DNA of 29,437 nt from Chloroflexota bacterium. Its GTDB lineage: Bacteria; Chloroflexota; Dehalococcoidia; UBA2979. Location: contig VYDC01000247.1 of NCBI GenBank assembly GCA_009843585.1, positions 1-29,437 of the forward strand, written 5' to 3'. Every line of letters starts with the position of its first letter. The stretch's first letter is position 1. The position numbers and the translations under genes are program-made. The notes under the pieces were generated by a model. The model saw only the letters and a list, made by a program, of their open reading frames with translations, made no database searches and was not told the DNA's origin. Below, one piece after another: positions 2,230 through 29,311 of this stretch.

Positions 2230-2700
2230 CTACCAGCGATAGTGAACAAAGGCTCGGTTCGCCTCCGCCATTCGGTGGACCTCTTCCTTGCGTCGCACGG
2301 CGGCGCCGGCATTGTTGGCAGCGTCGAGCAGTTCGGCGGCGAGCTTCTCAGCCATCGACCGCCCGGCGCGGCGGCGGGCGCCGTCGACGAGCCAGCGCAG
2401 GGAGAGGCTGAGCCGGCGGTCGGGGCGGACATCGACCGGCACCTGGTAGGTCGCTCCCCCGACGCGGCGCGGCTTGACCTCGATCACAGGGCTGGCGTTG
2501 CGGACCGCCTGCTCGAAGATGTCGACGCCACGGCGCCCGGTCTGCGTCTCCACGGTGTCGAAGGCCGAGTAGACGATGCGCTCGGCGAGGCTCTTCTTCC
2601 CGCTGTACATGATCCGGTGCGTCAGCCGCGTGACGAGCGTGGACTGATAGCGCGGATCGGGCGAGACATGGCGCCGGGGAGAGCGGTTGCGCCTCGCCAT
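2230..2700 (-). CDS. rpsG: 30S ribosomal protein S7 (156 aa)
   Basis: [46 protein letters not shown]. Start at ATG 2700, just after the rpsL stop. Confidence 0.98.
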
Positions 2701-2704
2701 CGCG

Positions 2705-3118
2705 CTAGCCCTTCCGGGTGCCGTACTTGCTGCGGCTGCGCTTTCGATCGCTGACGCCCTGCGAGTCGAGGGCGCCGCGGATGATGTGGTAGCGGACGCC
2801 GGGCAGATCCTTGACGCGCCCCCCGCGGACCAGCACGACGGAGTGCTCCTGCAGCGTGTGACCCTCGCCCGGGATGTAGGCCGTGACCTCGATGCCGTTG
2901 GTGAGCCGGACGCGCGCAACCTTCCGGAGCGCCGAGTTCGGCTTCTTCGGCGTGACCGTCCGCACCTGGGTGCAGACGCCGCGCTTCTGCGGCGAGCCTC
3001 GCCCCTCGCGGTTAACGCGGTTACGGAGCGTGTTCAGCCGGTAGCGCAGCGCGGGCGCCTTCATCTTGCGGCCCGTGGAGGTCCGCCCCTTGCGTACCAA
3101 CTGGTTGATGGTCGGCAC
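2705..3118 (-). CDS. rpsL: 30S ribosomal protein S12 (137 aa)
   Basis: (M)[35 protein letters not shown] start at 3118 with GGAGG RBS. Carries the N-terminal insertion ([16 protein letters not shown]) of long-type S12. Confidence 0.98.
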
Positions 3119-3331
3119 CGCGCCTCCCGGCACTCACCCCACGCCGGCTCGGCGGCCGCCCGCCGCCGGCCTCGTCCCTCATCACCGCGCTGTTTCGGGC
3201 ATCAAGAACGGCCGAGTGGCGAAGCGGGGAGCCAGCCGCGACGCCCCTTCCGGGGGTTGCCGTCGCCGGTCCTCGCCGCTCCACGGCCAAACGGCCGCTC
3301 CGCAATACATCCGCGATGAGCGCGACCACCG

Positions 3332-3360
3332 ATGCTAGGGCTCGCCCCGTGCAGTGTCAA
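3332..3360 (-). promoter_or_regulatory. Sigma70-type promoter of the str operon
   Basis: TTGACA (3360-3355), 17-bp spacer, TAGCAT (3337-3332); implies a leader of about 205 nt before rpsL. Confidence 0.85.
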
Positions 3361-3549
3361 TGCGCGGGGCGCCTCTCGGGCTGCGCGGACGAGGCTCGCC
3401 GGGTGGGGCCCGGAGCGGGCTCGTCGCGAGCGGCATCGGGGCTGCCGTCCCGCAGGAACACGACATACGGCGATGCACCCCGGCCGCCGCCACCGAAGCG
3501 GGACGGCCGCCGAGAGGCGCCGACCTCCGGGAGGAGCGAGACCGGAGGC

Positions 3550-4335
3550 TCAGCGCCTCAGGATCACGCGACGAAAGGACTCGCGGAACGGGGGATCGAC
3601 CTCCTGCTCGCCGGCCGAAGCGCCGGCCGCGGCGGCCTGACGCCGCTGCTCGCGGGCGCGCTCGCGCCACAGCCGCATCAGGTCCTGGACCGATCGCCCA
3701 CCCATCTGCGAGCTGTGCGCGAGCACGGCGCGCACCTTCGTCCTGAGGACCGGCTCGATGTCGACGTGGAAGTCGGGTGCGTCGCTCCCGACGAGCAGGA
3801 GCACGGCCGGCCGGTGGGGCTCGAGCTCCTCCTCCTTGTGGTGCGGGTAGTAGAGGTGATCGTCCGCCGCCGGGTAGATCGCGTCGTAGGTCGCGCGCCC
3901 GACGCGCCGGTGATCGCGGTGGTTGAAGCCGGGACGGAAGCCGTCCCAGGTGACGACGAGCTCCGGACGGCGGATGCGGACCTGACGGACGACGAGGCCG
4001 CGGAGCTCGTCGTCGTTGCGCAGAGCGCCGTCCGGGAAACCGAGGAAGACCGGCTCGCGGGCTCCGAGGATCGCGGCGGCCCGGCGCTGTTCCTCCTCGC
4101 GTACGCCGGCGAGGTACTGCGGCGTGACCCGGGGATCTTTGGTGCCTTTGTTGCCGCTCGTCGCAACGACAATGTCGACCTCCCACCCCTGCCGTGTGAG
4201 CGTCGCAACCGTCCCGCCGCAGGCGAACTCGCTGTCGTCGGGGTGCGCCATCACCACCATGGCGCGCGCTGGCCCGCGAGCAGCGAGCGCGGCGAAGAGA
4301 TCGGGCGCCTCGGCGAGTGGTGCAGCGGCGACCAC
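3550..4335 (-). CDS. PIG-L/LmbE family metal-dependent deacetylase (MshB/BshB/Mca superfamily)
   Basis: AHPDD metal motif, T.G.KG, LGFPDG and HRDH motifs. Confidence 0.88.
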   Translation of the reverse strand: MVAAAPLAEAPDLFAALAARGPARAMVVMAHPDDSEFACGGTVATLTRQGWEVDIVVATSGNKGTKDPRVTPQYLAGVREEEQRRAAAILGAREPVFLGFPDGALRNDDELRGLVVRQVRIRRPELVVTWDGFRPGFNHRDHRRVGRATYDAIYPAADDHLYYPHHKEEELEPHRPAVLLLVGSDAPDFHVDIEPVLRTKVRAVLAHSSQMGGRSVQDLMRLWRERAREQRRQAAAAGASAGEQEVDPPFRESFRRVILRR

Positions 4336-4339
4336 GGGC

Positions 4340-5662
4340 TCAGCAGCCCCCGGCAGCCGCCGGTCGCGCGTGCTCCCGCATCAGCTCCGCGTAGAGCGCG
4401 GCGAGCTCCCTGGCGACGGCGCCCCAGGCGTAGCGGCGCATCGAGCGCGAGGCCGCCTCCCCCATCGAGCGGCGGAGGGGCTCGTTGCGGAGCAGCAGCT
4501 CGATGCGCTCGGCGAAGGGCTCGGGACAGTGCCAGGGGACGAGGTAGCCGGTGCGCCCGTCCTCGATGGTCGTCTGGAGTCCGCCGACGCGCGAGGCGAC
4601 CACCGGCACGCCGGTCGCCATCGCCTCGACGGCAGCCAGGCCGAACGACTCGTAGAGGGACGGCACGGCGACCACGTCGGCTGAGGCGTAGTAGAGGGGG
4701 AGGCGCTCGTGCGGAACCGATCCCATGAAGCGCACGGCGCCGCCCACCCCGAGCTCCGCCGCGAGCGCCTGCAGCCGGCCCACCTCCTCCGAAGCCTGCT
4801 CCACTCCACCCGCGATCAGGAGCTCGACGCCGGACACGCCCCCCGGCCGCCGGAGCTGCGCGACGGCACGAACCAGGATGTCGAGTCCCTTCAGGGGCTG
4901 GATGCGGCAGACCGCGAGCACGAGACGCGACGTCTGGGGCAGGCCGAGCTCCGCGCGGGCCCGCTGCGCCTCCCGCCGGCGGAAGCGGCCGAGGTCGACG
5001 CCCAGGGGGACGACGCGCGTACGGCCGGGCGCGACGCCGTAGATGCGGCGCAGCAGCCCCACTTCGTGCTCGGTCGCCACCACGATGCGGTCGGCGGCGT
5101 GCACGAGACGCCGCTCCGAGACGAGCCTCACGGACGGCTCGTGCTGCGCGGCGAGCGCGCGCCGCTTCACCTCGCCGAGGGTGTGGAACATCGCGATGTG
5201 CGGCACCCGCCAGCGCTCGGCGAGGTGCTCCGCGGCGAGCGCGGAGAGCCAGTAGTGCGCGTGCACGACGTCGTAGCAGCGGCCGTCGCGCTCCGCGAAG
5301 GCGGCGACAGCACCGGAGAACGCGCCGACGTGTTCGCTGAGCGCCGCCGGGAGCAGCGGGACGGCCGGGCCCGCCTCGATCTGGATCAGGCGCACACCCG
5401 GCGCGATCCGCTGGACCTCGGGCGTCCGCTCGTGCTCGCGGCGCGTGAAGACATCGATGGCGATCCCGGCGCGGCCGAGCTCCCTCGCGACCTCGCGGAC
5501 GTAGACGTTCATCCCTCCCGAGACCGGTCCCCCCGGCGGGGCGAGCGGCGAGGTATGCAGAGAGAGCATCGCGACGCGGCGGACGGTGCCGCCCGCGACG
5601 TCGGCCGCGACGCGGCGGGGGTGCAACGGCGCCGGAGCGCGGTCGAGCAGCGAGTACGTCAC
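4340..5662 (-). CDS. GT4 glycosyltransferase, MshA-like
   Basis: VAMLSLHTSPL..GGMNVYVRE, YDVVHAHYWLS, HTLGEVK, RIQPLKG, ESFGLAAVEA. Start uncertain; GTG 5662 follows the folE stop. Confidence 0.88.
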   Translation of the reverse strand: MTYSLLDRAPAPLHPRRVAADVAGGTVRRVAMLSLHTSPLAPPGGPVSGGMNVYVREVARELGRAGIAIDVFTRREHERTPEVQRIAPGVRLIQIEAGPAVPLLPAALSEHVGAFSGAVAAFAERDGRCYDVVHAHYWLSALAAEHLAERWRVPHIAMFHTLGEVKRRALAAQHEPSVRLVSERRLVHAADRIVVATEHEVGLLRRIYGVAPGRTRVVPLGVDLGRFRRREAQRARAELGLPQTSRLVLAVCRIQPLKGLDILVRAVAQLRRPGGVSGVELLIAGGVEQASEEVGRLQALAAELGVGGAVRFMGSVPHERLPLYYASADVVAVPSLYESFGLAAVEAMATGVPVVASRVGGLQTTIEDGRTGYLVPWHCPEPFAERIELLLRNEPLRRSMGEAASRSMRRYAWGAVARELAALYAELMREHARPAAAGGC

Positions 5663-5669
5663 CAGACTG

Positions 5670-6272
5670 CTACGACTGCGCGCGGATGAGCTGCAGGAAC
5701 TCGGCACGGCTCTCCGGGTCGCGACGGAAGACGCCGCGCATCGCCGAGGTCACCATCCGCGACCCGGGCTTGCGGATGCCGCGCGCCGTCATGCAGAGGT
5801 GTTCCGCCTCGATCACCACCCCGACGCCGCGCGCGCCGAGCACGCGCTCGATGCACTCGGCGATCTGCGTGGTGAGTCGCTCCTGCACCTGCGGGCGCTT
5901 CGCGAATATCTCAACGGCGCGCGCGAGCTTGGAGAGACCGACGATGCGCCCGTCCGGAAGGTAGCCGACGTGCGCCTGTCCGTGGAACGGGAGGAGGTGG
6001 TGCTCGCACATCGAGTAGAACGGGATCTCGCGCAGGATGACCATCTCGTCGTGGTCCTCCTCGAAGCTCACCGCGAGCACCTCCTCCGGGTCGAGGAAGA
6101 GACCCTCGAAGAGCTCCTGGTACATGCGCGCCATTCGCCCGGGCGTGTCGACGAGACCCCGGCGGTCGGGATCCTCGCCGACGGCGACGAGCAGTTCGCG
6201 CAGGAGACCCGTCAGACCGGGGGCGTCGAAGGCCCGCGGCGTCGGGGCGCCGCGCAGGGGCGACAGGGTCAT
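5670..6272 (-). CDS. folE: GTP cyclohydrolase I
   Basis: [59 protein letters not shown]. Confidence 0.97.
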
Positions 6273-6341
6273 CTCTCGCGTCCTCCCGGGCCGGCGTGCG
6301 GGCGGTGCTCCGCTCTGAGGCGCGGCGCGGTCCGGTGCCGG

Positions 6342-6350
6342 ATCGTAGCA
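6342..6350 (-). promoter_or_regulatory. Possible extended -10 promoter for folE-GT4-PIG-L
   Basis: TGCTACGAT (TGn-TAnnnT) about 70 nt upstream of the folE start; no clear -35. Confidence 0.4.
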
Positions 6351-6391
6351 CGAGCCCCCGCGCCCCCGGCGCTCCGACCGGGAGGCGCCCG

Positions 6392-7480
6392 CTAGCTCCA
6401 GCCGAGGGCGCGTGCCACGGACCCGACCTCCGCCGGCACCTCACGGCGCACGGTCGGGACGCGGAGCGCCGTCTCCGGATCCTTCAGGCCCGATCCCGTG
6501 ATCACGCAGACGGCCGTGAGGCCACGGAGGCTCTCCCCCGCCTCGGCCATCGAGATCAGGCCGGCGACCGAGGCCGCCGAGGCCGGCTCGCAGAAGATGC
6601 CCTCGTCCTGGGCGAGCCGCCGGTAGGCATCGAGGATGCGCTCGTCGCTCACCGCCTCGATGCGGCCCGCCGAGTCGTCCCGCGCAGCGACGGCGCCCCG
6701 CCACGACGCCGGGTTCCCAATGCGAATGGCGGTGGCCACGGTCTCGGGATCCTCGACCGGCGCCCCCCGCACCAGCGGCGCCGCCCCCGCCGCCTGGAAG
6801 CCCCACATGCGCGGCGTCCTGAGCGAGCGCTCTCGGTGCCGGTACTCAACGAAGCCCGCCCAGTAGGCCGTGATGTTCCCGGCGTTACCGACGGGGATCG
6901 CGAGCAGGTCGGGGGCGTCGCCGAGATCGTCGGCGATCTCGAAGGCGGCCGTCTTCTGGCCAGCGATCCGGTACGGATTCACCGAGTTCACGAGCGCGAC
7001 CGCCTCGCGAGCGGCGAGCTGGCGCGCGATCTGCAGGCAGCGGTCGAAGGAGCCGTCGACCGCGATCACCTGCGCGCCGTGCGCCACCGCCTGCGCCAGC
7101 TTCCCCATCGCCACATGGCCGCCCGGCACGAGCACGTAGGCCGGAAGCCCGTGGCGGGCGGCGTAGGCGGCGGCGGCGGCGGAGGTGTTTCCGGTCGAGG
7201 CGCAGAGCACCGCCCGGGCGCCCTCCTCCACTGCCTTGGCAACGGCCACGACCATGCCGCGGTCCTTGAAGGAGCCGGTGGGGTTGGTCGACTCGAGCTT
7301 GAACCAGAGCTCGCCGAGGCCGAGCTCCGCCTCGAGGGCACGCGAGCGGACGAGAGGCGTGCCACCCTCCCCCAGCGTGACCATCGGAGTGCGGTCGGTG
7401 AGGGGCAGCAGGTCGCGGTAGCGCTCCATGATGAAGCGTCCGGGCGCCCCCTCCACCCGCTCGCGGCGCTCGATCGTCAC
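6392..7480 (-). CDS. thrC: Threonine synthase
   Basis: [18 protein letters not shown] (PLP lysine), [37 protein letters not shown]. Lies downstream of hom. Confidence 0.96.
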
Positions 7481-8580
7481 CGCCCAGCCTCCGCGGCGCC
7501 CTCGTCGGATGCCTGACCCTCCTGCTCCTCGCGGGCGGTGAGCGGGGCCTCGGCGAGGCGGGCGAGCAGTTCGTTCGCCACGCGCACCTCGCGATCCAGT
7601 TCGGCGGACCGACGGCCGGCGGCCTGCTCCTGCGCGCGCGCACTGCGGCGAACGTGCTCGATCATCGACTCGCGCTGCCCCTCCACGGTGTCATCGAGCG
7701 CCCGCAGGCGCTCCGCGAGCCCGGTGGCATCCCCGCGCAGCAGCGAGACCGCCTCGTGCTGCGCATCGAGCCGGGCGCTCTCCGCGGCCAGGCGCTCCTC
7801 CAGGTCGGCGAGGCGAGCCTCGAGGCGGTGCCGCTGAACGCGCTGCTGTTCAAGCGCGTCGACCAGCGCCGCCTCCTCGCGCTGGATGGCACGCAGCGAC
7901 CCGACTTCCTCACCGAGCTGGCGGTAGTCGGCCGCGAGGACACCGAGGCGCGTCGCCATCTCGTCGACGGCGGTGCGCAGCGAGTCGGTGGCGGCGACGA
8001 GGCGGGAGAGCTGCTCGGCGGCTCGGCGCTGCACCTCGCTCCCCGCCGCCATGTCGCGCTCGACCCCCGCGAGCCGCTCCTCGGCGCCGAGGGCCGCGGA
8101 CTCGCGGGCCGCGGACTCGTCCTGCAGCCGGCGGAGATGGCCCCCCTCGACCTCGTTCCTCTCCGTCAGGCTCTGGACGCGATCGGCGAGCGCCTGCTGC
8201 TGCGCCTCACGCTCGGCCGTGCCGGCCCGCTCGTTCTCGATGAACGCGAGCAAACGCTGCGCGAGTTCGCGGCGCTGCGCCGATTCCGTCTCCATGCGCT
8301 CCCTGAGCGCCTCCAGTTCGCGAGTGGCGTCGCGCGCGAGCTGCTGTCCCGTCTCGTGGCGCTCGGTACGGCCGGAGAGGACCTGTATCTGCTGCTGCGC
8401 ACCGTCGAGCTCGCCCCGCTGCGCGTCGAGCTCCGTGCGCAGCACCGTCAGCATTCGCTGGTGCTCGGCGTGGAGCTGGCGCACAACCTCCGTCTGCTGG
8501 GCGATAAGCTCGCGGGCGGCCGCCACCTGCGGGGCGGCGGGGGCCGTGGTGGCGTCCGTCGCGGTGCCGTCGGCCGTCAC
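7477..8580 (-). CDS. Hypothetical long coiled-coil protein (367 aa)
   Basis: E/Q/R/A/L-rich heptad-like sequence with no enzyme motif. GTGA overlaps with both hom and thrC. Confidence 0.8.
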
Positions 8581-9893
8581 CTGGCACCTCCGTCGCCGTA
8601 GATCGGCAGCACGCTTCCCACCTCCGGCACGTCGCCCTCGAGCGCGGCGATCTCCGTCAGCGCCCCGTCGAGCCGCCCGGTCACCGCCGGATGCGTGGTG
8701 ATCACGATCTCCGCGGTGCGCGCCCGGGAATCCGCCTCCACCTGGATCACCGAGGCGAGACTGATCTCGTGCCGCCCGAGAATACCGGCGATCCCTGCCA
8801 GCACGCCCGCTCGGTCGGCGACGGTGAGCCGGAGGTAGTGCCGGGCGACGACCCGCTCCCGGGGTCGGACCTGCGCCCGTGCGTAGGGCGCGGCCTCCGG
8901 GGGAAGCCGTCCGGTGGCGACGTCGCGCGCGACATCGAGCACGTCGGCGAGCACCGCGCTCGCGGTCGGGCGCGCGCCGGCGCCGGCACCCTCGAAGAGG
9001 ACGCGACCCACGAGGTCGCCCTCGACCTGTACGGCGTTGCGCACGCCGTCCACCGTCGCAAGCGGCTCGTGGCGCGCGATCAGCGTGGGCGAGACGGTCG
9101 CGACCAGTTCGGCGCCGGTCGGACCGGGCAGGAGGGAGCCCTGTGCCAGGAGCTTGATCGCGTAGCCGAGATCCTGCGCGTAGGCGAAGTCGCGCGCGGC
9201 GAGCCCGCGGATCCCCTGACGCGAGACCGCCTCCGGCGAGACGACGACGTGGAAGGCGAGCCCGCAGAGGATCGCGAGCTTGTAGGCGGCGTCACCCCCG
9301 TCGACGTCGGCTGCCGGGTCGGCCTCGGCGTAACCCAGGCGCTGTGCCTCAGCGAGGACATCGCCGTATTCGGCGCCACGCTTCGCCATCGCGGTGAGCA
9401 TGAAGTTCGTGGTGCCGTTGATGATGGCCGTCACGTCGGTGATCTCGTTCGCGAGCAGATCGCGCGAGAGCGGGCTGATGATCGGAATGCCGCCCCCGAC
9501 CGCCGCCTCGTAGAGCAGCCGCACGCCGCGCTCGGCGGCGAGGGCGAGCAGCTCGGGACCGTGCTTCGCCATCACCTCCTTGTTCGCGGTGACGACGTGG
9601 CGGCCCGAGCGTAGCGCGCTCTCGATATGCTGGCGCGCTGGCTCCTCACCCCCCATCAGCTCGACGACGACGTGCGTGCCCTCGTCGGCGAGTATCGAGC
9701 CGACCTCGGAGGTCAGGTGGTCGGATGGCACGCCCTCGCGCGGGCGGCCCGCATCGCGCACCAGCACCCCGCGCAGCGCGAGTGGCCGGCCAACGCGGGA
9801 GGAGTAGCGCTCCGCCCCGGTCTCGATGGCGCGCGCCACCCCGGCCCCGACGGTCCCGGCGCCCAGGAGCGCGATCCCGATCGCGTCTGCCAT
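8577..9893 (-). CDS. hom: Homoserine dehydrogenase with C-terminal ACT domain (438 aa)
   Basis: LLGAGTVG, VVTANK, YEAAVGGGIP, INGTTNF, GYAEADP..DVDG, GAGARPTASAV, ACT-like DRAGVLAGI. ATG 9893 overlaps the upstream TGA. Confidence 0.96.
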   Translation of the reverse strand: MADAIGIALLGAGTVGAGVARAIETGAERYSSRVGRPLALRGVLVRDAGRPREGVPSDHLTSEVGSILADEGTHVVVELMGGEEPARQHIESALRSGRHVVTANKEVMAKHGPELLALAAERGVRLLYEAAVGGGIPIISPLSRDLLANEITDVTAIINGTTNFMLTAMAKRGAEYGDVLAEAQRLGYAEADPAADVDGGDAAYKLAILCGLAFHVVVSPEAVSRQGIRGLAARDFAYAQDLGYAIKLLAQGSLLPGPTGAELVATVSPTLIARHEPLATVDGVRNAVQVEGDLVGRVLFEGAGAGARPTASAVLADVLDVARDVATGRLPPEAAPYARAQVRPRERVVARHYLRLTVADRAGVLAGIAGILGRHEISLASVIQVEADSRARTAEIVITTHPAVTGRLDGALTEIAALEGDVPEVGSVLPIYGDGGAR

Positions 9894-14146: not shown

Positions 14147-15442
14147 CTACGGCGCGGGGAGCCCCGGCGCCGGGTGCCGCTGGCAAATCTCCGAGACCTC
14201 GCCGCGGACGCGCCCGGCGAGGGACTCGTCTGCGGGCGCCTCCAGCACCGACGCGATCAGCTCGCCGACGCGGCTCATCTCCTGTGGTCCGAGGCCGCGC
14301 GAGGTGAGCGCCGGCGTGCCGATCCGCAGGCCCGAGGTGACCGCGGGGGGGAGAGGGTCGTAGGGGATCGCGTTCTTGTTGACGATGATGCCGCAGCGGT
14401 CGAGCGCGCTCTCCGCCTCCTGGCCGGTCAGCCCCTTGGGGCGCACGTCGACCAGGATGAGGTGGTTGTCGGTGCCGCCCGAGACGAGGCGCAGCCCCGC
14501 CTCCGAGAGCGTCTCCGCCAGCGCGCGGGCGTTCTCCACGGTCTGGTGCTGGTAGGCGGCGAACTGCGGCGTCGCCGCCTCTCCGAGCGCGACCGCCTTC
14601 CCGGCCACGACGTGCATCAGCGGGCCGCCCTGGTGCCCGGGGAAGACGCCGCGGTCGACGCGCCGCCGCAGCTCCCGCTCGCAGAGGATGAGCCCGCCGC
14701 GGGGGCCACGGAGCGTCTTGTGCGTGGAGCTCGTGAGCACCTGCGCGTGACCTGCCGGCGAGGGATGTGCACCCGCGGCGACGAGACCGGCGATGTGCGC
14801 CATGTCGGCCATGAGGACGGCGCCGACCTCGTCGGCGATCTCCCGTGCGCGCGCGAAGTCGATGATGCGCGGGTAGGCCGTCGCGCCCACCACCACGATC
14901 TTCGGGCGCAGCTCCTGGGCCGCGTGTCGCATCGCCTCGTAGTCGATGGTCTCGCTCTCGCGGTCGACGCCGTAGGAGCCGAAGCGATAGAGCTTGCCCG
15001 AGGCGTTGACATGGTGGCCGTGCGTGAGGTGGCCGCCCTGATCGAGCGCCATCCCGAGCACCGGGTCGCCGGGGTCGAGCAGGCCCTCGTAGACGGCGAG
15101 GTTCGCCTGCGCGCCCGAGTGCGGCTGCACGTTCGCGTGCTCCATGGAGAAGAGCGCCTGCGCTCGGTCGCGCGCGAGCGTCTCCACCTCGTCGATGAAC
15201 TGGCAGCCGCCGTAGTAGCGGCGTCCCGGGTAGCCCTCCGCGTACTTGTTGGTGAGAACGCTCCCGACCGCCTCCAGCACGGCCCTCGAGGTGAAGTTCT
15301 CCGACGCGATCATCTCGAGCGTCGTCCGCTGTCGCTCCTCTTCGCGGGAGATCGCCTGAGCCACCGCCGGGTCGGCGTCGACGAGCGCGGGCTCGCGTGG
15401 AGTGGCTCCGCCCCGGACCTGCTGACTGGACGTGGCTGTCAT
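14147..15442 (-). CDS. glyA: Serine hydroxymethyltransferase
   Basis: [69 protein letters not shown]. Confidence 0.98.
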
Positions 15443-15456
15443 GAGATCACCCTTAT

Positions 15457-15587
15457 CCCCGGCCTCGTCGGCGGCTCGGTCGAGCCCCGGCGCCCCTTTT
15501 CACACGGTACCGCAGCGCGGCGTCGCGGTCGCGCTCAGGGGCGGCCGTGAGGGGCGCCGTGATGAGTCCCCGGCGGCGGCCGCGGGG
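15457..15587. ncRNA. Putative structured RNA (long irregular hairpin) between divergent glyA and moaDE
   Basis: Nested perfect stems GGCGCCCCT/AGGGGCGCC, CACGG/CCGTG, CCGC/GCGG, AGCGCG/CGCGCT (15489-15558), a side hairpin GGCTC/GAGCC, and outer CCCC-GGCC/GGCC-GC-GGGG pairing. Confidence 0.45.
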
Positions 15588-15621
15588 CCGGAGAGCGCGC
15601 GGCCCCGCGCCCCCGCGCTCC

Positions 15622-15627
15622 TATACT
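15622..15627 (+). promoter_or_regulatory. -10 hexamer for moaD-moaE
   Basis: TATACT 25 nt upstream of the TTG start; no clear -35. Confidence 0.5.
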
Positions 15628-15651
15628 GGAGGCGGTGCCGGGAGGGACGAG

Positions 15652-16353
15652 TTGCAGGTCACGATCCGTCTCTTCGCAGCGCTGCGCGAGCTGGCGGGGG
15701 CCGAGCTGGTCGAGGCCTTCGAGGGGCCGACCGTTCCGCTCGACGAGCTGCGCGCCCGCCTGGCGGAGCGCCACCCCGCGCTCGCGCCGCATCTGGACGG
15801 GGTCGCGGTCGCGGTCAACGAGGAATATGCGCGAGGCGGAACGACCCTCCTCCACGACGGCGACCGCGTCGCCCTGATCCCGCCGGTCGCCGGCGGCGGT
15901 GCGGAGACGGCACCGCCCCGGGTGCTGGTCACGCCCGAGCCCCTCGACACCCTCTCGCTCCGAGACCTCGTCCGGAGCGACGCCTCCGGGGCGGTGGTGA
16001 TCTTCGAGGGGATCGTCCGCGACCACCACGAAGGGCGTGCCGTCGAGCGGCTGGAGTACGAGGCATACCGGGAGATGGCCGAGCGTGAGATCGCCCGCGT
16101 CGTTGCGGAGGTGCGCAGCGAGGCGGAGACGGCCGGCAGTCCCCTGCACGGCGTCGCCGTGCATCACCGGGTCGGCATGCTGCAGGTCGGCGAGATCGCG
16201 ATCGTGGCGGCGGTCTCGGCGGTGCACCGCGAGGAAGCGTTCCGAGCGGCCTCCCACCTCGTCGACCGCGTCAAGGAGAGCGCGCCCATCTGGAAGCGGG
16301 AGTGGGGCCCCGGGGGGGCCAGCTGGCAGGAGGGCACAGCCGTCCGCCCGTAG
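15652..16353 (+). CDS. moaE: Molybdopterin synthase MoaD-MoaE fusion (233 aa)
   Basis: N-terminal ubiquitin-like MoaD (V.IRLFAALRE..AVNEEY..GDRVALIPPVAGG), then MoaE (GAVVIFEGIVRD, LEYEAY, HRVG.L..GE, HREEAF, K..APIWKRE). TTG start with GGAGG RBS. Confidence 0.93.
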   Translation: MQVTIRLFAALRELAGAELVEAFEGPTVPLDELRARLAERHPALAPHLDGVAVAVNEEYARGGTTLLHDGDRVALIPPVAGGGAETAPPRVLVTPEPLDTLSLRDLVRSDASGAVVIFEGIVRDHHEGRAVERLEYEAYREMAEREIARVVAEVRSEAETAGSPLHGVAVHHRVGMLQVGEIAIVAAVSAVHREEAFRAASHLVDRVKESAPIWKREWGPGGASWQEGTAVRP

Positions 16354-16368: not shown

Positions 16369-17808
16369 TCAGCCGATGCCGTCCGCCACGCGATAGTCGG
16401 GGGCCAGGATCTCGTAGTTGGTGGCGACCTTCAGATCCGACAGCCGGGAGAGGATGCGCGGCTCCAGGTCCCCGCCCTCGCGCGCGGCCCCTGTGCGCGG
16501 GGCCGTGCGGCGGCCCCGGCTGCGGCGCGGCTCGGCGGAGGGCTCGGAGGGGGCGGGCTCGCTGTTGCGGGTGACGACCGTCGCCATGCGGCCGAGGTAG
16601 CGGTGGTTCAAGAGCTGGTAGAGCTTCTCCTCTGCCCACGGGCTTGAGTGGTGCGCGCCCAGGTCGTCGAGCACCAGCAGCGTCACGTCCTGGAGGCGGC
16701 GGAAGATCTGGGCGGAGCTCTCGCCGGCCTCGGGCGCGTAGCCCGCGCGCAGCTCGTCGAGCAGGTCGGGCACGGTCGCGAAGCAGACGCTGTCGCCCGC
16801 GGCGATGCGGTCGTTGGCGATCGCCGCGGCGAGGTGGGTCTTGCCGCATCCGGGCCCGCCCTGCAGCACCAGCCAGCCCTCGGGTCGCTCGGCCCACTGG
16901 CGCGCGAGCCGGAAGGCCCCCTCGAGGTTGCTGCGTTGCTGGCCCCGGAGACCGTGACCCCCCGGCCGGAAACTCTCGAAGGTCATGGGGGCGAGGCGGT
17001 CGGCCGACATCCCGCCCACCGCGACGTAGCGCGGGAGCGCGGACTGCTCGAGGTCGAGCACCTGCGCGTGCTGGGGGTCGGTGAGGCGCGCCCCGATGCG
17101 GGGGTCGATCTCGGCGGGCGGGCCGACGCAGGTGAAGATCGTCGGCGCGAGCGCGTTGAAGCGGTGCGCGACCACCTGGAAGAACTTCTCGCGGGCCCAG
17201 GGCGTGCCGGCGTAGGAGTCGAGATCGTCGAGCACGAGCAGCGGGGCGCCCTGCACCTCGGCGAGGAGAGCGTCGTAGCCCAGCTCCGCATCGTCAGCGT
17301 AGGCGGCTCGCAGCCGGTCAAGCAGGTCGGCGACGGTGAGGAAGAGCGCGGGGCGCCCCTCCTCGATGGCGTGCATGGCGATCGCGGCGGCGAGATGCGT
17401 CTTGCCGCAGCCCGGCGCGCCCGTGAGCACCAGCCAGCCCTCCGGGCGCTCCGCGTAGCGTCTCGCCGCCTCGACCGCCGCCCGGTAGCGTTCACGCGCC
17501 ACCGGATCCGAGGCGCGGCCACCCTCAAGCAGCGTGCCGAAGGTGAAGCGGGCGAGAGAGCCGAGCCGCGAGTACCGCAGGAGCCGCTCCCGCCGGGCGC
17601 GCTCGTCCTCGCGCGCGGTGCACGGGCAGGGCTGCGCGCGCCCGAAGGCGGGGTGTGCGGGATCGGCGGTCACCCGCACGAAGCGCGCGCCGTCGCAGAG
17701 CGCGCAGACCGGAGTGCCGGTGTTGCCCTCCGGGTCGGCGTCAGGGCCAGGAGCGGCGGACGACTCGCCGGTACGGGTCGCCCCCAGGATCTCGCTCAGC
17801 GCCCGCAT
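16369..17808 (-). CDS. DnaC/DnaI/IstB-like ATPase with N-terminal Cys motif and two tandem AAA+ domains; probable helicase loader
   Basis: CALC..CPC; Walker A GAPGCGKT (17421-17398) and GGPGCGKT (16860-16837); Walker B LLVLDDL twice; RIGARL/RILSRL. AGGAGG RBS. Downstream of dnaB and the DnaD-like gene. Confidence 0.88.
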   Translation of the reverse strand: MRALSEILGATRTGESSAAPGPDADPEGNTGTPVCALCDGARFVRVTADPAHPAFGRAQPCPCTAREDERARRERLLRYSRLGSLARFTFGTLLEGGRASDPVARERYRAAVEAARRYAERPEGWLVLTGAPGCGKTHLAAAIAMHAIEEGRPALFLTVADLLDRLRAAYADDAELGYDALLAEVQGAPLLVLDDLDSYAGTPWAREKFFQVVAHRFNALAPTIFTCVGPPAEIDPRIGARLTDPQHAQVLDLEQSALPRYVAVGGMSADRLAPMTFESFRPGGHGLRGQQRSNLEGAFRLARQWAERPEGWLVLQGGPGCGKTHLAAAIANDRIAAGDSVCFATVPDLLDELRAGYAPEAGESSAQIFRRLQDVTLLVLDDLGAHHSSPWAEEKLYQLLNHRYLGRMATVVTRNSEPAPSEPSAEPRRSRGRRTAPRTGAAREGGDLEPRILSRLSDLKVATNYEILAPDYRVADGIG

Positions 17809-18511
17809 CGGTCCCCTCCTCTCCGCGCCCCTCGACCTCCCAGCGCCTCAGCACCGCCTCCGCGTACGCCCACGAGCGCGCGTTGTGGAGCGCCGCCAGG
17901 CGAAGGGCGTCCTCGATCCAGCCTTCCGGGTAGCGAGCCTCGGCCTCGGCCAGCGCCGCCGCCACCGCCGGGGTGATGAGCCCGATCTCGGGCTCGTAGA
18001 CCGCAACCGCGCCTGCGGGATCCGCCGGGTGCTCCGGGCCGGCGGCGACCCCGGCTCCGGCGCGCCATCCGCTCGGAGCGGGCGGGGGGGTGAGCGCGCC
18101 CGCGAGCAGGCGATCGCGCTGCCTGCGCCCGGCCGGCGAGTTCATCAGGTAAAGCAAGTCGCCGTCCGGGAGCTCCACGGCAAGCATCGAGCCGCGGTCG
18201 GCAACCCGCGAGAGCGCGGCGCCGGCGGCGCTCTCGGCCTCGCCGGGCGCGAGACGCTCGAACTGCCGGAGAAGCGGTCGCTCCCGGAGCAGCTGCGACC
18301 GCCTCACGCCGAGCACGGGTCCCGGCCGCACGGCTGCGGCCAGCGCGTAGAGCGTCGCGCGCAGCTCGCCCTCCTCCTCGATCCGGGGCAGGAGCGCAAC
18401 GAAGAGCTCGCGCGGCAGCGCCACCGCCGGCGCCCCGGCCTGGAAGCCCGGGAAGCGCGGCGTCGGCGGCGCGGCGCCCGGGGCGGCCGAGCGCGCGCGG
18501 CGCGCGTTCAC
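17741..18511 (-). CDS. DnaD-domain (DnaB_2) replication protein (256 aa)
   Basis: N-terminal FPGF..LPRELF..LLPRI...ELRATLY; C-terminal YEPEIGLITP..YPEGWIEDALRLA...NARSWAYAEAVLRRW. GTG 18511 overlaps the dnaB TGA. The 3' end overlaps the next gene by 68 bp. Confidence 0.82.
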   Translation of the reverse strand: MNARRARSAAPGAAPPTPRFPGFQAGAPAVALPRELFVALLPRIEEEGELRATLYALAAAVRPGPVLGVRRSQLLRERPLLRQFERLAPGEAESAAGAALSRVADRGSMLAVELPDGDLLYLMNSPAGRRQRDRLLAGALTPPPAPSGWRAGAGVAAGPEHPADPAGAVAVYEPEIGLITPAVAAALAEAEARYPEGWIEDALRLAALHNARSWAYAEAVLRRWEVEGRGEEGTDAGAERDPGGDPYRRVVRRSWP

Positions 18512-19944
18512 CACCCGTCGCCGCCGGAGGTCGGCTCCTCCGCCCGCAGCAGCAGGTCCTGGAAGGAGGCAGTGCTGCTGACGAAGCGCACCGACACCGA
18601 CCCCGTCGGCCCGTTGCGATGCTTCGCCACGATGACCTGGGCGATGCCCGTGGGGTGCTGGCTCCCGGGGGCCTCCGGGTGCTGGCGCTGCCACTCCTCG
18701 GGCTTGAGGTAGACGTCCTCGCGGTAGATGAACATCACGACGTCCGCGTCCTGCTCGATGGAGCCCGACTCACGGAGGTCGGAGAGCATCGGGATGTGCG
18801 GGGTGCGCTGCTCGACCGCGCGCGAGAGCTGCGCCGCCGCGATCACCGGCACCTGCAGCTCGCGCGCCATCTCCTTGAGCGACCGGGAGATCTGGCTGAT
18901 CTCGCCGGCTCGCGTGTCGGCGCGGCCGCTGCCGTGCAGCAGCTGCAGGTAGTCGACGACGATGAGGTCGAGCCCGACGTCGGCCTGCAGCCGCCGTGCC
19001 TTCGCGCGGATCCCGGGGACGGAGAGGACCGGCGAGTCGTCGATGTAGACGGCGGCGCCGCCGAGCACGCCGATGGCGTGCATGATCTGCCCCTCCTCGC
19101 GCTTCGTGTGCGTGCCGAGCCGGAGCCGGCTGGACGTCACGTCGGCCTCGGCGGAGAGCAGCCGCGCCGCGAGCTGCTCTCCGGACATCTCGAGCGAGAA
19201 GAGCGCCACCGTCGCGTGCTGCCCGACGGCGGCGTTGCGCGCGAAGTTCAGGAGGAGCGCCGACTTCCCCACGCCGGTCCGGGCGGCGAGGATGAGCAGG
19301 TCGCCGCGCTTGAAGCCGCCGAGCAGCCCGTCGAGATCCATGAAGCCGGAGCGCACGCCCTCGACGAGCTGGCCCTCAACCTCCTCGCCGGGGTCCTCCA
19401 GGAAGTGCTCGATCAGCTCACGCAGGCGGTGAAAGTCGCCCGCTGCCTCCGCCGACCGCACCCCGAGCAGGAGCGTCTCCGCCTCGGCCAGGACGCGGGA
19501 GACGTCGGGCCCCCCCTCGAAGGCCCGCTGTGCGATCTGCGAGGCGGCCTGGATCAGCCGGCGATAGAGCGCGTCGCGGGCGACGATGCGCGCGTGCGCC
19601 TCCACGCCGAGCGCCGTGAAGTGCTTCCCCTGAATCTCGGCGAGGTAGGGCTCGCCGCCCGCGGCGTCGAGGCGTCCGTCGCGCTCGAGCTCGTGCGCGA
19701 GCGTGGTTAGCGTGACGGGTTCGGAGCGCCCGCTGAGCGCCTGCGCCGCCTCGTAGCACCAGCGATTCTGCTCGCGGAAGAAGTCCTCCGGCTGCACGAT
19801 CGGGAGCACGCGGGCGAGGGCGCTGTCGTCCAGCAGGAGCGCCGCGATGACGGCCTCCTCGGCGTCGATGTCATGCGGCGGCAGCCCGCTTGAGCGGGCT
19901 TGTGCGTCCGGCCACAGAGCGGGCGGACGCCTCTCCGTGACCAC
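18508..19944 (-). CDS. dnaB: Replicative DNA helicase
   Basis: PPHDIDAEEAVI, SGFMDLD.LLGG, AARTGVGKS, FSLEMS, VDYLQL, AQLSRAVE, SDLRESGSIEQDAD, KHRNGPTG. No intein. Confidence 0.97.
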   Translation of the reverse strand: MVTERRPPALWPDAQARSSGLPPHDIDAEEAVIAALLLDDSALARVLPIVQPEDFFREQNRWCYEAAQALSGRSEPVTLTTLAHELERDGRLDAAGGEPYLAEIQGKHFTALGVEAHARIVARDALYRRLIQAASQIAQRAFEGGPDVSRVLAEAETLLLGVRSAEAAGDFHRLRELIEHFLEDPGEEVEGQLVEGVRSGFMDLDGLLGGFKRGDLLILAARTGVGKSALLLNFARNAAVGQHATVALFSLEMSGEQLAARLLSAEADVTSSRLRLGTHTKREEGQIMHAIGVLGGAAVYIDDSPVLSVPGIRAKARRLQADVGLDLIVVDYLQLLHGSGRADTRAGEISQISRSLKEMARELQVPVIAAAQLSRAVEQRTPHIPMLSDLRESGSIEQDADVVMFIYREDVYLKPEEWQRQHPEAPGSQHPTGIAQVIVAKHRNGPTGSVSVRFVSSTASFQDLLLRAEEPTSGGDGW

Positions 19945-19947
19945 GGG

Positions 19948-24205: not shown

Positions 24206-26389
24206 CTAGCGGCGCGACGACTCGGCGGCGCCGTCGGGCTGCTCGGGCGGGCCGCCGCGCCCGTCACCGTCGCCGGTGCCGAGACGATCGGAGCGCTCGC
24301 GCTCGGTGGGCTCGGGGTACTCGACGCGGGGGTGGAAGACCGCCGCGAGCGCCGAGACGAACGAGTCGGAGGCGACTCGGAGATCGCGGAGCGAGATCGG
24401 ACAGTCATCGAACTGCCGCTCGTCGATTCGCTCCCGAATCACGCCGTCGACGATCGTGCGGATCTGCTCGGGGGAGTAGTCCGAGCTCGCCCGGACCGCC
24501 GCCTCGCAGCCGTCGGCCAGCATCACGAGCGCCGCCTCGCGCGAGCGCGGTCGCGGCCCGGGGTAGCGGAAGAGCTCGGGATCGATGCTCGGGTTCTGCT
24601 CGGCGGCGCGGCGATAGAAGAAGGCGACCAGCCGCGTCCCGTGGTGCTGCGGAATGAACTGGACGATCGCCTCGGGCAGCCCGCTCCGGCGGGCGATCTC
24701 GATTCCGGCCGTCACGTGCTGCTGGATGACGCGGGTGCTCTGCAGGGGATCGAGCCCCCCGTGCGGACTCTCGCCGCTCTGGTTCTCGACAAAGAAGGCG
24801 GGGGCGACCAGCTTCCCGACGTCGTGGTAGTAGGCGCCAACGCGGGCGACGAGCGGGTTCGCGCCGATGCGATCGGCGGCGCGCTCGGCGAGCGTGCCGA
24901 CGAGGACAGAGTGCTGGAAGGTGCCCGGTGCCTCGTCCTGCAGGCGCCTGAGCAGCGGGTGGTTGAGCTGCGCCAGCTCCATCAGCTCGACGCGCGTGAT
25001 GATGCCGAACGGGCGCGAGAGGACGATGAAGGCGCCGACCGCGATCATCGCCGCCAGGAAGCCGCCGACGGTCGTCGTGGCCGCGATCCAGAGCAGATCG
25101 ACGCCGGAGCGCTCAGCGTCCAGCATCCAGGTGGCGAGCGCCGCGGCCGCGCCGGCTGCCGCGGCTCCGATGCCCGCGAGCAGGTAGCGCTGCTGCCGCT
25201 CGGCGCGCGCGGCCGGGAGTATGCCCCCGAGCGAGGCGGCGAGGACGACCAGGGCGATGCGCACCGCCTCGATCGGCGTCGAGACGCCGACCCCGTCGGT
25301 CCCCGGGACCTCCAGGGCGACGAACGAGGCAATAGCGGCGACGAGCACGGCGAGCAGCAGCGCAACCGGGACGTCGAGCAGAACGGCCGCCGCCACCGGC
25401 GTCGCCGCGAGCGGCAGCGCGTGCGCCAGGAAGCGCCGCTCCTCATCGGGGAGCGTGAGCGGGAGTCCGAACTTGGCGACTATCGCCGGGGCGAGCAGGA
25501 GCAGTCCGAGCAGCAGCAGGCGGCGGAGGCCGGCGACGCTCGGCGGCTGCTCGACGAAGAGGTAGCCGGCGATCGCCGCCGCGGCGAGCAGCGCCACCAG
25601 CACGGTCGCGAGGATCGACTCGAGGCGCACATCCGCCTCGACGAGGTCGAGCATCTGAAGCGCCTCGGCCTGCACGGCCGTGATCGGCTCGTCGCGGGTC
25701 ACTACCGGGTCGCCGGCCTCCACGACCACCTCGACCGGGCGCTGCGCCACGCGCGCCTCCTCCCGGACGAACTCGGTGCGCTCGCGGTCGACGACGAGCG
25801 TGGGCACGACCAGGGGGTCGAGCACCTCGGTGAGGGCACGCCGCTGCGCCCCGTCCAGCTCGGGCGAGAGGAAGCCCGCCGTCCGCTGCCTCGTGCTCGG
25901 CAGGTCGTCCGCCGAGACGGCGCCCGTGAGCGCACGCCCGAGCGCGTTGCGCGCCTCGGCGGCGAGCTGCTGCCAGGTCGCGTCGTCGGCCGCCGCGAGC
26001 ACGGCGGCGGCGGCGGTGGAGAGCTCGACCCCGTCGATGCCGCGGATTGCCGACTCGCGCGCCGAGGCGGCGAGCGACGTATCGCGGCGCGCCGCGTCGA
26101 TCATCGCGAGCTGGCGATCGAGCGAGCGCAGCTGCGTGTCGCGGACGCCGGGGTCGAGCACGTAGACGTCGGGGACGGCGGCGGCGGCGTCTGAGCGCAG
26201 CGCCTCGGTCAGCACCGCCGACTCGTAGGTGGCGGCCCGCGGCGCGGTGATGGTGCGCGTGGCGAGGCTTCCCTCCGAGACGGCGTCGGTGCCGGGGAAC
26301 CAGGGGAAGAGCGCCGCCACGAGCGCGGCCGCGAGTACGCCGCCCAGCAGGGCGGCGCGACGCCCGGTGAAGGTGCGCCCGTGACTCAC
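24206..26389 (-). CDS. 7TM-HD (HDIG) phosphohydrolase, PgpH-like cyclic dinucleotide phosphodiesterase
   Basis: N-terminal TM, large extracytoplasmic domain, multi-TM block, then APGTFQHS, YYHDVGK, F.ENQ, QHHGT, GPRP.SRE, LADGCEAA. Confidence 0.88.
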   Translation of the reverse strand: MSHGRTFTGRRAALLGGVLAAALVAALFPWFPGTDAVSEGSLATRTITAPRAATYESAVLTEALRSDAAAAVPDVYVLDPGVRDTQLRSLDRQLAMIDAARRDTSLAASARESAIRGIDGVELSTAAAAVLAAADDATWQQLAAEARNALGRALTGAVSADDLPSTRQRTAGFLSPELDGAQRRALTEVLDPLVVPTLVVDRERTEFVREEARVAQRPVEVVVEAGDPVVTRDEPITAVQAEALQMLDLVEADVRLESILATVLVALLAAAAIAGYLFVEQPPSVAGLRRLLLLGLLLLAPAIVAKFGLPLTLPDEERRFLAHALPLAATPVAAAVLLDVPVALLLAVLVAAIASFVALEVPGTDGVGVSTPIEAVRIALVVLAASLGGILPAARAERQQRYLLAGIGAAAAGAAAALATWMLDAERSGVDLLWIAATTTVGGFLAAMIAVGAFIVLSRPFGIITRVELMELAQLNHPLLRRLQDEAPGTFQHSVLVGTLAERAADRIGANPLVARVGAYYHDVGKLVAPAFFVENQSGESPHGGLDPLQSTRVIQQHVTAGIEIARRSGLPEAIVQFIPQHHGTRLVAFFYRRAAEQNPSIDPELFRYPGPRPRSREAALVMLADGCEAAVRASSDYSPEQIRTIVDGVIRERIDERQFDDCPISLRDLRVASDSFVSALAAVFHPRVEYPEPTERERSDRLGTGDGDGRGGPPEQPDGAAESSRR

Positions 26390-26456
26390 CGGGGCCGCGC
26401 CCGGACGCCGGGGGTGCTCGACGCGCCGAGGCGAGCCGGCCGGCTCCGCTGCCGCA

Positions 26457-26906
26457 TCAGGCGCCGCCGAGCAGCCCCCGCACGATCTCGTTCGCGCGCC
26501 GGCCGTCGGCGCGCCCGGCGACGCGCTCCATCAACGGGCGCATCACGCGGCCGAGATCGCCGGGTGCCGACGCGCCCACCTCGGCGACGACCTGGCGCGC
26601 CAGCTCGGCGAGCTCCTCCTCGGCGAGCGGCTGCGGCAGGAATCCCTCGATGAGGCGAAGCTCGGTCCGCTCGCGCTCGGCCAGGTCCTCCCGTTGCGCG
26701 CGCTCGTACTCGGCGATGGACTCGCGACGCTGCTTCGCCTCGCGCTGCAGGACACGCGTCGCCTCGTCGTCCGAGAGCTCGTGCCCCGCGGCGATGCGGG
26801 CGTTCTGGAAGGCGGCGATGAGGAGTCGGAGCGCGTCGCGGCGCGTCGTGTCCCCGGCGCGCATCGCGGCGGTCATCTGCTGCTGGACGTCACGGGTCAG
26901 CACCAT
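26457..26906 (-). CDS. GatB/YqeY domain protein
   Basis: AMRAGD..RRDALRLL, REAKQRRESI..Y, R.DLAERE..E...IEGFLPQPL, GRVM, GRADG. Follows rpsU as usual. GGAGG RBS. Confidence 0.93.
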   Translation of the reverse strand: MVLTRDVQQQMTAAMRAGDTTRRDALRLLIAAFQNARIAAGHELSDDEATRVLQREAKQRRESIAEYERAQREDLAERERTELRLIEGFLPQPLAEEELAELARQVVAEVGASAPGDLGRVMRPLMERVAGRADGRRANEIVRGLLGGA

Positions 26907-26952
26907 GCGCCTCCGGTGACCAGTGACCCCGGATCGCTCCGGGGCCCGACGC

Positions 26953-27165
26953 CTAGGGCCGAAGCTCGGTGCCGCCTTTTCGCCTCAGGAGCTTGCGCAG
27001 CTTGCGGCGACGCGCCGCCTCCTTCTTCTTGCGGCGCTCGGAGGGCTTCTCGTAGTACTCGTGCCTGCGGGCGTCGGTGAGGATGCCGTCGGCCTGCACG
27101 CGCTTGTTGAAGCGCTTGAGCGCGACGTCCAGCGACTCGGACTCGCCAACCTGCACTTCCGCCAC
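26953..27165 (-). CDS. rpsU: 30S ribosomal protein S21 (70 aa)
   Basis: (M)[21 protein letters not shown]...GIL...[22 protein letters not shown] start at 27165. Confidence 0.96.
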
Positions 27166-27201
27166 CGGCCTCGCCACCCTTCGCACGACCCCCGGGCCGC
27201 G

Positions 27202-27231
27202 ATCGTAGGCCGCGCCGATTTGGGGCGTCAA
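27202..27231 (-). promoter_or_regulatory. Sigma70-type promoter for rpsU-yqeY
   Basis: TTGACG (27231-27226), 18-bp spacer, TACGAT (27207-27202). Confidence 0.75.
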
Positions 27232-27253
27232 TTGAGCCCGCGGGCGCCGGCGC

Positions 27254-27397
27254 CTAGTCGGCCGAGGGCAGGACCTTCGGCTGGAGCTCCTCCATGCCTC
27301 GACCATCGACGTTCAGGTTGCACTCGCCCGGCTTGATGCAGAGCACCTCGATGCCGGTCGACTCGTCCTGGTAGCGCTTCCCCAGCTGTACTGCCAT
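27254..27397 (-). CDS. Small hypothetical protein, 47 aa, GKRY motif
   Basis: Hand-translated [57 protein letters not shown]3-biased codons. Absent from the ORF track. Confidence 0.85.
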
Positions 27398-29250: not shown

Positions 29251-29311
29251 TACGCCCGCTCGCTTCCCTCGCCCGACCCCCAGCGGGCCGGACCGAATGG
29301 TCCCGTCCGCA

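Follow-up and report, generated by a model that had tools for sequence, protein, structure and literature searches.

What do the enzymes of a three-gene cassette from a Chloroflexota bacterium of the class Dehalococcoidia make? The cassette lies on a stretch of 29,437 nucleotides (GenBank contig VYDC01000247.1, C229 in our numbering), which was analysed as a whole and is referred to here as the window. The window belongs to a metagenome-assembled genome of 2.09 Mb (assembly GCA_009843585.1; 283 contigs, about 73% GC, 74% complete). The cassette contains folE, a gene for an MshA-like GT4 glycosyltransferase (GT) and a gene for a PIG-L/LmbE-type deacetylase. An initial annotation of the window proposed that the last two enzymes could make a different glucosaminyl conjugate or a low-molecular-weight thiol in a non-actinobacterial host. 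Low-molecular-weight thiols set the redox chemistry and the detoxification capacity of the cell. We know of no identified thiol from the Chloroflexota, although the phylum is very abundant; most of its members are uncultured.

Our analysis favors, with modest confidence, a mycothiol-like pathway to a thiol of the form Cys-GlcN-X (cysteinyl-glucosaminyl-X). The GT and the deacetylase would catalyze its first two steps, and an MshC-like paralogue of cysteinyl-tRNA synthetase (CysRS) encoded elsewhere in the genome would complete it. The first two steps are suggested by homology and gene pairing, the ligase step by the phyletic pattern and the domain architecture of the paralogue. The host is indeed not an actinobacterium, and the closest public loci are titled Dehalococcoidia or Chloroflexi. 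The cassette is composed of the following genes.

3550..4335, minus strand: PIG-L/LmbE-type zinc deacetylase, 261 residues (PF02585, AHPDD and HxDH motifs)
4340..5662, minus strand: MshA-like GT4 glycosyltransferase, 440 residues from the GTG at 5662 (TIGR03449, PDB matches)
5670..6272, minus strand: folE, GTP cyclohydrolase I, 200 residues (TIGR00063 and PF01227)

The three genes are codirectional and tightly spaced, as first described. The folE stop codon (5672-5670) is located 7 nt before the GT start, and the GT stop codon (4342-4340) 4 nt before the GTG of the deacetylase gene at 4335. The GT open frame extends to 5707 (4340-5707). Translation probably begins with the GTG at 5662, as in 440-residue database homologues. 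The GC content at third codon positions (GC3) is 0.88-0.92 in the cassette, as expected for genuine genes when the genome has 73% GC.

The glycosyltransferase and the deacetylase

The GT is composed of the Glycos_transf_1 and Glyco_trans_4 domains. The motifs quoted in the initial annotation are all present in its translation, where they read HTSP, GGMNVY, HYWLS, FHTLG, RIQPLKG, PGGPVSGG and LLPAAL. Hidden Markov model searches with the MshA, MshB, BshA and BshB families gave only matches under the curated cut-offs. The best NCBIfam match of the GT is MshA (TIGR03449, 380 bits; cut-off 462.5). It scores 100 bits with BshA (TIGR03999, cut-off 274) and matches the NCBIfam model of glucosaminyl-phosphatidylglycerol (GlcN-PG) synthase weakly, with 86 bits. 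Ten other homologues, from other Chloroflexota classes and Rokubacteria, score 336-399 bits with the MshA model, and none matches another model under E = 1e-50. Because all the homologues tested fall below the cut-off, the whole clade is, judged by its sequences, an MshA-like sister group outside the curated equivalog.

Among solved structures, the closest relative of the GT is Corynebacterium glutamicum MshA (CgMshA, 3c48; 290 bits), followed by the sucrose-phosphate synthase Tll1590 (TeSPS, 6kih; 230 bits). Tll1590 is likewise a GT4 enzyme acting on a sugar phosphate acceptor. However, it uses UDP-glucose, has no deacetylase partner and scores below MshA. With MshA as the best match in both NCBIfam and the PDB, the description of the GT as MshA-like holds. 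An alignment to 3c48 and 3c4q shows that the donor-site and catalytic residues H109, R231, K236, E316, S317 and E324 of CgMshA are all conserved in the GT. The roles of H109, E316 and S317 in MshA are cited in PMC8231724.

The deacetylase matches PF02585 with 107 bits (gathering score 28), and MAHPDDSE and NHRDH represent the two zinc-site motifs in its translation. Among NCBIfam models, its best match is BshB1 (TIGR04001, 95 bits; cut-off 182), followed at a distance by Mca (53 bits; cut-off 277) and MshB (TIGR03445, 47 bits; cut-off 224). In the PDB, it is most similar to LnmX (96 bits) and next to archaeal diacetylchitobiose deacetylases, and the MshB entries score only 35 bits. The LnmX match and the low BshB1 and MshB scores confirm that it is a generic LmbE/PIG-L enzyme rather than a true MshB. 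It is the single PIG-L gene found in the window genome. Its ratio of nonsynonymous to synonymous substitution rates (dN/dS) within the genus is 0.10-0.19.

The acceptor site

The GT differs from CgMshA in two segments that line up with the acceptor site.

5339..5356, minus strand: LLPAAL codons, GT residues 118-123, with P120 aligned to K78 of CgMshA
5513..5536, minus strand: loop PGGPVSGG codons, GT residues 58-65, with V62 aligned to D20 of CgMshA

The alignment is free of gaps in these regions and places the substitutions as D20 to V62 and K78 to P120. N25, H109, Y110, H133, T134 and R154 of CgMshA are kept. A structure of MshA was reportedly determined by Vetting and colleagues in 2008, in which K78, Y110, T134 and R154 are said to bind inositol phosphate. 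The residue letters of these ligands agree with the PDB sequence. Three of the four are kept in the GT (Y152, T176 and R194 are the counterparts of Y110, T134 and R154), and K78 is lost.

The initial annotation had pointed out both replacements. They are real, and the donor side is conserved. However, they are not a trait of the whole non-actinobacterial clade, as they are specific to the genus and most Chloroflexota keep both residues. We aligned 90 GT homologues, four of them from the window genus (the window, L011, L013 and L014). PGGPVSGG and LLPAAL occur only in these four. Most Chloroflexota homologues have the loop LGG[RK][DE]TGGMNVY plus a Lys at the K78 position. There are ten genus-specific changes at otherwise conserved sites of the GT, two of them within the acceptor loop. 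Within the genus, the dN/dS of the GT is 0.20-0.28, and the altered protein is therefore maintained by purifying selection and not decaying. These comparisons suggest that the acceptor pocket has been remodelled at two positions in the window genus, and that the GT may use another acceptor than its relatives do, or bind it in another way.

A related change is seen outside the genus. In some lineages, the Lys corresponding to K78 has been lost and another is found at position 20 of the loop, as in GQGKSGG and GGKKTGG (for example L059, L062, L087, L054, L088 and L091). In the alignment, this looks like a compensating swap, a correlated relocation of positive charge within the acceptor pocket.

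Gene order in relatives

The GT was found in all 31 relatives searched. In 39 of 99 related loci, folE is located just upstream of the GT. These loci belong to relatives from the class or to records titled Dehalococcoidia or unclassified Chloroflexi, with one exception titled Chloroflexia. The other 60 loci have the GT without folE. PIG-L is located downstream of the GT in 39 of the 99 loci, which represent several Chloroflexota classes. The order of folE, GT and PIG-L thus recurs in relatives.

More distant Dehalococcoidia have additional genes in the cluster. Their order is hom, thrC, folE, a Fem/CelD-type GNAT transferase (PF13480), GT, a DUF502 protein and PIG-L, as in L059. The Fem-type gene is directly 5' of the GT in 34 of the 99 loci, including Anaerolineae-type, Rokubacteria and Methylomirabilia records. 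In the window family, folE abuts the GT with no Fem gene between them. No Fem-type gene was found by tblastn in the window genome, in any of 19 genomes of its family or in any of the six family genomes of the class sample described below. The same search of the window genome returned no homologue of the DUF502 and DUF885 neighbors present in other families. A conserved gene for a DUF502 membrane protein separates the GT from PIG-L in loci of the folE-Fem-GT-DUF502-PIG-L type (L059:7226-7963, plus strand, and ten others).

The Fem-GT4-PIG-L module of other Chloroflexota shares with the window an orthologous GT and PIG-L, and often the same folE neighbor. It differs in that the window family is without Fem, has folE abutting the GT and has an MshC-like CysRS paralogue as the sole candidate ligase. 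Our literature search found no paper describing a Chloroflexota Fem/GT/PIG-L module.

A truncated CysRS paralogue

MshC is a CysRS paralogue that acts as a tRNA-independent ligase, and Fem-type ligases use aminoacyl-tRNA (Aravind and colleagues, PMC2922099). The window genome contains two CysRS-like genes, on contigs C108 and C55. The C108 protein is a canonical CysRS, which matches cysS over its full length with 441 bits and has the CysS_C anticodon domain. The second protein is shorter.

C55 of the window genome (G000), about 14624-15844 (L004:1333-2724): truncated CysRS paralogue, ending after DALR_2, no CysS_C

The C55 paralogue covers positions 1-373 of 466 in the cysS model and 14-410 of 411 in the MshC model. 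It aligns with residues 12-413 of 414 of M. smegmatis MshC (3c8z, 284 bits), and the two proteins are co-terminal. The alignment with E. coli CysRS reaches only residues 1-393 of 461. The paralogue retains HxGH and KMSKS as well as two invariant Cys that align with the zinc ligands, and its segment after KMSKS is visibly nearer to MshC than to E. coli CysRS. The C55 paralogue is MshC-like in its predicted architecture and is a candidate ligase.

The truncation is shared by related proteins. A stop codon directly follows the aligned region in the copies checked, which are from families f1, f2, f4, f5, f8, f11, f16 and f28. The truncated paralogues of all groups checked, including those of Chloroflexus and Herpetosiphon, form one clade apart from canonical CysRS (support 99/98). 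For a comparison with actinobacterial MshC, the best 150 representatives of a search of 1.84 billion proteins were considered; they reach down to 283 bits, about where true MshC would begin. Ten short matches were looked up. Most are nameless, the names given are all of CysRS or MshC type, and the only organisms named are Chloroflexota.

Proteins of about 750-800 residues containing a full CysRS module are found in the Dehalococcoidia families f26, f43, f51 and f53 (L152:1188-3464, minus strand; L154:1796-4123, plus strand; L155:1482-3884, plus strand). These three form a long-branched clade of their own (100/100). A GT2 domain is fused to the C-terminal side of CysRS in L152 and L154, and no Pfam GT2 match is found in L155. 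By domain content, the L152/L154-type protein would be an aminoacyl-tRNA synthetase-glycosyltransferase fusion.

Distribution of GT, Fem and the extra CysRS

We searched 121 genomes of the class with a canonical CysRS, the Fem protein and the GT, and the results were cross-tabulated.

GT present, Fem absent: 19 genomes, 18 with an extra CysRS-like gene
GT present, Fem present: 76 genomes, 19 with an extra CysRS-like gene
GT absent, Fem absent: 21 genomes, none with an extra CysRS-like gene
GT absent, Fem present: 5 genomes, 1 with an extra CysRS-like gene

The extra CysRS paralogue is thus found in 37 of 95 GT-positive genomes and in 1 of 26 GT-negative genomes. The single exception among the genomes with GT and without Fem is G123, where the GT match is weak (32% identity). 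All 18 genomes with a strong GT match and no Fem have the extra gene. In five of the 19 genomes with GT, Fem and an extra copy, this copy is only the CysRS-GT2 fusion of about 750 residues, which belongs to a different clade. The genomes are related and are not independent samples, and the GT-negative ones tend to be small.

Twelve GT-bearing genomes from outside the class (5 without Fem, 7 with Fem) were also compared. The truncated paralogue is present in four of the five without Fem: Chloroflexus islandicus, Herpetosiphon, a Chloroflexales metagenome-assembled genome and a Ktedonobacterales one. The exception is a Thermoflexus metagenome-assembled genome. Only one CysRS is present in five of the seven genomes with Fem. 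The pattern extends across many families and ties the CysRS paralogue to the GT pathway. It fits a paralogue and a Fem protein that are partly interchangeable, or that act together where both occur.

The proposed pathway

In the pathway that we favor, the MshA-like GT would use UDP-GlcNAc to attach N-acetylglucosamine (GlcNAc) to an acceptor, either a polyol or an acid in phosphorylated form, with inositol phosphate as the default candidate. The PIG-L enzyme would remove the acetyl group and free the glucosamine amine. The truncated CysRS paralogue would then ligate cysteine to this amine to give the mycothiol-like thiol Cys-GlcN-X. The Fem gene located between folE and the GT in most other Chloroflexota would have been lost in the window lineage, which would rely on the MshC-like ligase. 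The thiol proposed in the initial annotation gains support from this paralogue.

We searched the genome for the remaining genes of known thiol pathways. Ino1 is present, and an MshC-like truncated CysRS is found below the MshC cut-off. No MshD (TIGR03448) match exceeds the cut-off of 163 bits, the best being 32 and 21 bits, in a genome that is 74% complete, and BshC (TIGR03998) has no match in it. GshB was found neither in the window genome nor in 19 of 20 relatives. With the MDMPI_N/DinB and mycoredoxin models, all matches were weak or sub-threshold.

Two proteins of about 300 residues with a C-terminal GNAT domain were considered as MshD candidates and rejected, as they are unlinked to the GT in any fetched locus. 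In three Dehalococcoidia loci, a GNAT protein of about 305 residues, similar in size to MshD, is encoded between DUF502 and PIG-L on the opposite strand (L043:7866-8783, minus strand; homologues in L089 and L102). It has only a weak match in the window genome (C71). The ino1 gene is found in a cluster on C86 (L133, 3763-9471, minus strand), together with genes for two Lip_A_acyltrans proteins (HtrB/PatA-like), a PHP_C protein, a GT4 and a CDP-alcohol phosphatidyltransferase. By its gene content, this cluster looks like an operon for phosphatidylinositol (PI) or for glycolipids of the phosphatidylinositol mannoside (PIM) type.

Several observations weigh against the favored pathway. None of the three enzymes (GT, deacetylase and candidate ligase) reaches the curated cut-off of the corresponding model (MshA, MshB and MshC, respectively). 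For the C55 paralogue, the MshC score (TIGR03447) is 338 bits with a cut-off of 485, and the cysS score (TIGR00435) is higher, 357 bits, narrowly over its cut-off of 340. Many canonical CysRS are as similar to the C55 paralogue as M. smegmatis MshC is. The paralogue adjoins no pathway gene in the window genome, in Chloroflexus or in Herpetosiphon. Its neighbors in the window genome are a CNNM transporter, an FAA hydrolase and a flavin reductase, which are uninformative, as are those in the other two. At least 12 Fem-bearing genomes also have a non-fusion extra CysRS-like copy, and the two are not strict alternatives. The missing MshD and the incomplete genome count on the same side. Ino1 is found in 120 of the 121 class genomes and is therefore uninformative on the acceptor; it makes inositol phosphate available and proves nothing specific. 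Finally, the view of the acceptor site depends on K78, Y110, T134 and R154 as the reported inositol-phosphate ligands of MshA.

Alternative explanations

The product may be a glucosamine compound other than a thiol, such as a GlcN-phosphatidylinositol-like glycolipid, a GlcN-PG-type lipid or a GlcN-polyol solute, with the truncated CysRS unrelated to it. A GT4 followed by PIG-L is also the logic of glycosylphosphatidylinositol anchor initiation (PIG-A and PIG-L). The weak match to the GlcN-PG synthase model, the DUF502 membrane protein between the GT and PIG-L in many relatives, the PI/PIM-like cluster around ino1 and the ligase gene, which is never adjacent to the cassette, would all be accommodated. 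However, the extra CysRS tracks the GT in the counts given above, including all 18 strong-GT genomes without Fem. The Fem-type transferase inside the operon of relatives points to aminoacylation of the freed amine. In addition, the GT lacks membrane segments, and the acceptors of its nearest relatives with known structures are soluble sugar phosphates. We regard a product of this kind as unlikely.

Ordinary mycothiol would require that the GT, the deacetylase and the truncated CysRS are true orthologues of MshA, MshB and MshC. The window system shares much with the actinomycetotal pathway, which is composed of MshA, the MshA2 phosphatase, MshB, MshC and MshD. In both, a GT4 with MshA as its best match is followed by a PIG-L deacetylase, and Ino1 supplies inositol phosphate. 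The window genome also encodes a derivative of CysRS that has no anticodon domain and can be aligned with MshC over its whole length. JGI pipelines also label homologues of the GT as D-inositol-3-phosphate glycosyltransferase, and one truncated CysRS as MshC ligase. However, the scores are under the cut-offs for all three (380 against 462.5, 47 against 224 and 338 against 485 bits). The deacetylase resembles BshB and LnmX more than MshB, no MshD over the cut-off was found, and K78 and D20 are replaced in the window genus. To our knowledge, actinobacterial mycothiol clusters have no Fem-type transferase, unlike the operons of many Chloroflexota relatives. The host is a member of the Chloroflexota, and complete mshA-D sets are reported only in Actinobacteria (Hiras et al., 2018; PMC6282198). 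Mycothiol itself is thus an improbable product.

Bacillithiol was rejected. Its synthesis by BshA, BshB and BshC also uses a GT4, a PIG-L deacetylase and the addition of cysteine, and BshB1 is the best NCBIfam match of the window deacetylase. However, the BshA and BshB1 scores (100 against 274 and 95 against 182 bits) are below the cut-offs, and no BshC match was found in the genome.

The last alternative concerns folE. The folE protein matches TIGR00063 with 245 bits (cut-off 181.6) and PF01227 with 255 bits. Because folP and a gene for 6-pyruvoyl tetrahydropterin synthase (PTPS) are present in the window genome, folE is probably a housekeeping neighbor with an ordinary folate role. Its product would serve folate synthesis, and its place beside the GT would reflect a conserved gene order and probable co-transcription. 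The initial annotation had raised a pterin glycoside, in which the GT would glycosylate a GTP-derived pterin and PIG-L would trim the product, a pterin N-acetylglucosaminide or glucosaminide; the 7-nt gap and the neighborhood kept in 39 of 99 loci at GT identities down to about 42% speak for it, but it is highly improbable, because the GT is found without folE in 60 of the 99 loci, and GT, Fem and PIG-L without it in all those titled Anaerolineae, Chloroflexus, Herpetosiphon, Ktedonobacterales and Rokubacteria. Also against this reading, hom and thrC belong to the conserved order with no functional tie, folP and PTPS give folE its folate role, and the GT keeps three of the four reported phosphate-binding residues of the inositol-phosphate enzyme.

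Surroundings of the cassette

The cassette is surrounded by housekeeping genes. The elements nearest to it are listed below.

2705-3133: rpsL, downstream of the promoter at 3360-3332
3332..3360, minus strand: sigma-70-like promoter TTGACA-17-TAGCAT (10/12 consensus matches; 0.1 expected in shuffles)
6392..7480, minus strand: thrC-like pyridoxal phosphate enzyme, upstream of folE (PF00291, 264 bits), context outside the pathway

The upstream neighbors are thrC, a plus-strand open reading frame (ORF), hom, a peptidyl-prolyl isomerase gene, rpsR, ssb and rpsF. Downstream of the cassette, the strong promoter-like site at 3360-3332 is followed by rpsL, rpsG and fusA. This site is 3' of PIG-L and 5' of rpsL, and marks the probable end of the cassette transcription unit. 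No terminator-like sites were seen in the scanned stretch 2400-8000, and no tRNA genes were found in the window.

Several other features of the window were observed. The plus-strand ORF at 7654-8601 (315 residues, coding-like GC3, no Pfam match) is on the opposite strand between hom and thrC, and splits a pair that relatives keep together. An ORF at 16369-17847 (minus strand, 492 residues) contains two tandem P-loop ATPase modules of the DnaC/IstB/DnaA type. It is directly downstream of dnaB (18508-19947, minus strand) and may be a duplicated helicase loader. ThiS/MoaD-like and MoaE domains are found in one ORF at 15445-16353 (plus strand), a fused molybdopterin synthase, which is divergent from glyA (serine hydroxymethyltransferase, 14147-15499). 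A 7TM-HD (PgpH-like) hydrolase is encoded at 24206-26530 and 26457-27312 (both minus strand), after YqeY and rpsU. The region 27608-29394 encodes a Rieske protein and a c-type cytochrome.

Implications

Chloroflexus aurantiacus is listed among bacteria with unidentified novel thiols (Newton and Rawat, 2019; PMC6336425). Chloroflexota and some Rokubacteria and Methylomirabilia may make a mycothiol-like thiol, perhaps that of Chloroflexus, with cysteine added by the truncated CysRS or by the Fem-type protein, the latter probably in a tRNA-dependent reaction. In the window genus, the acceptor pocket would be re-tooled and the aglycone may differ. This wider proposal is tentative, and we hold it with less confidence than the pathway proposed for the window.

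The window contains the Chloroflexota module in the form that lacks Fem, and a specific ligase can be put forward as the candidate for it. The family of this ligase is also present in cultured Chloroflexus and Herpetosiphon, and the question is therefore open to experiment. The genus-specific change in the acceptor site provides a natural experiment on the acceptor specificity of GT4 enzymes. If the proposal is true, the MshC-like ligase and Fem, with their partly complementary distribution, would clearly exemplify non-orthologous displacement in the synthesis of a cofactor.

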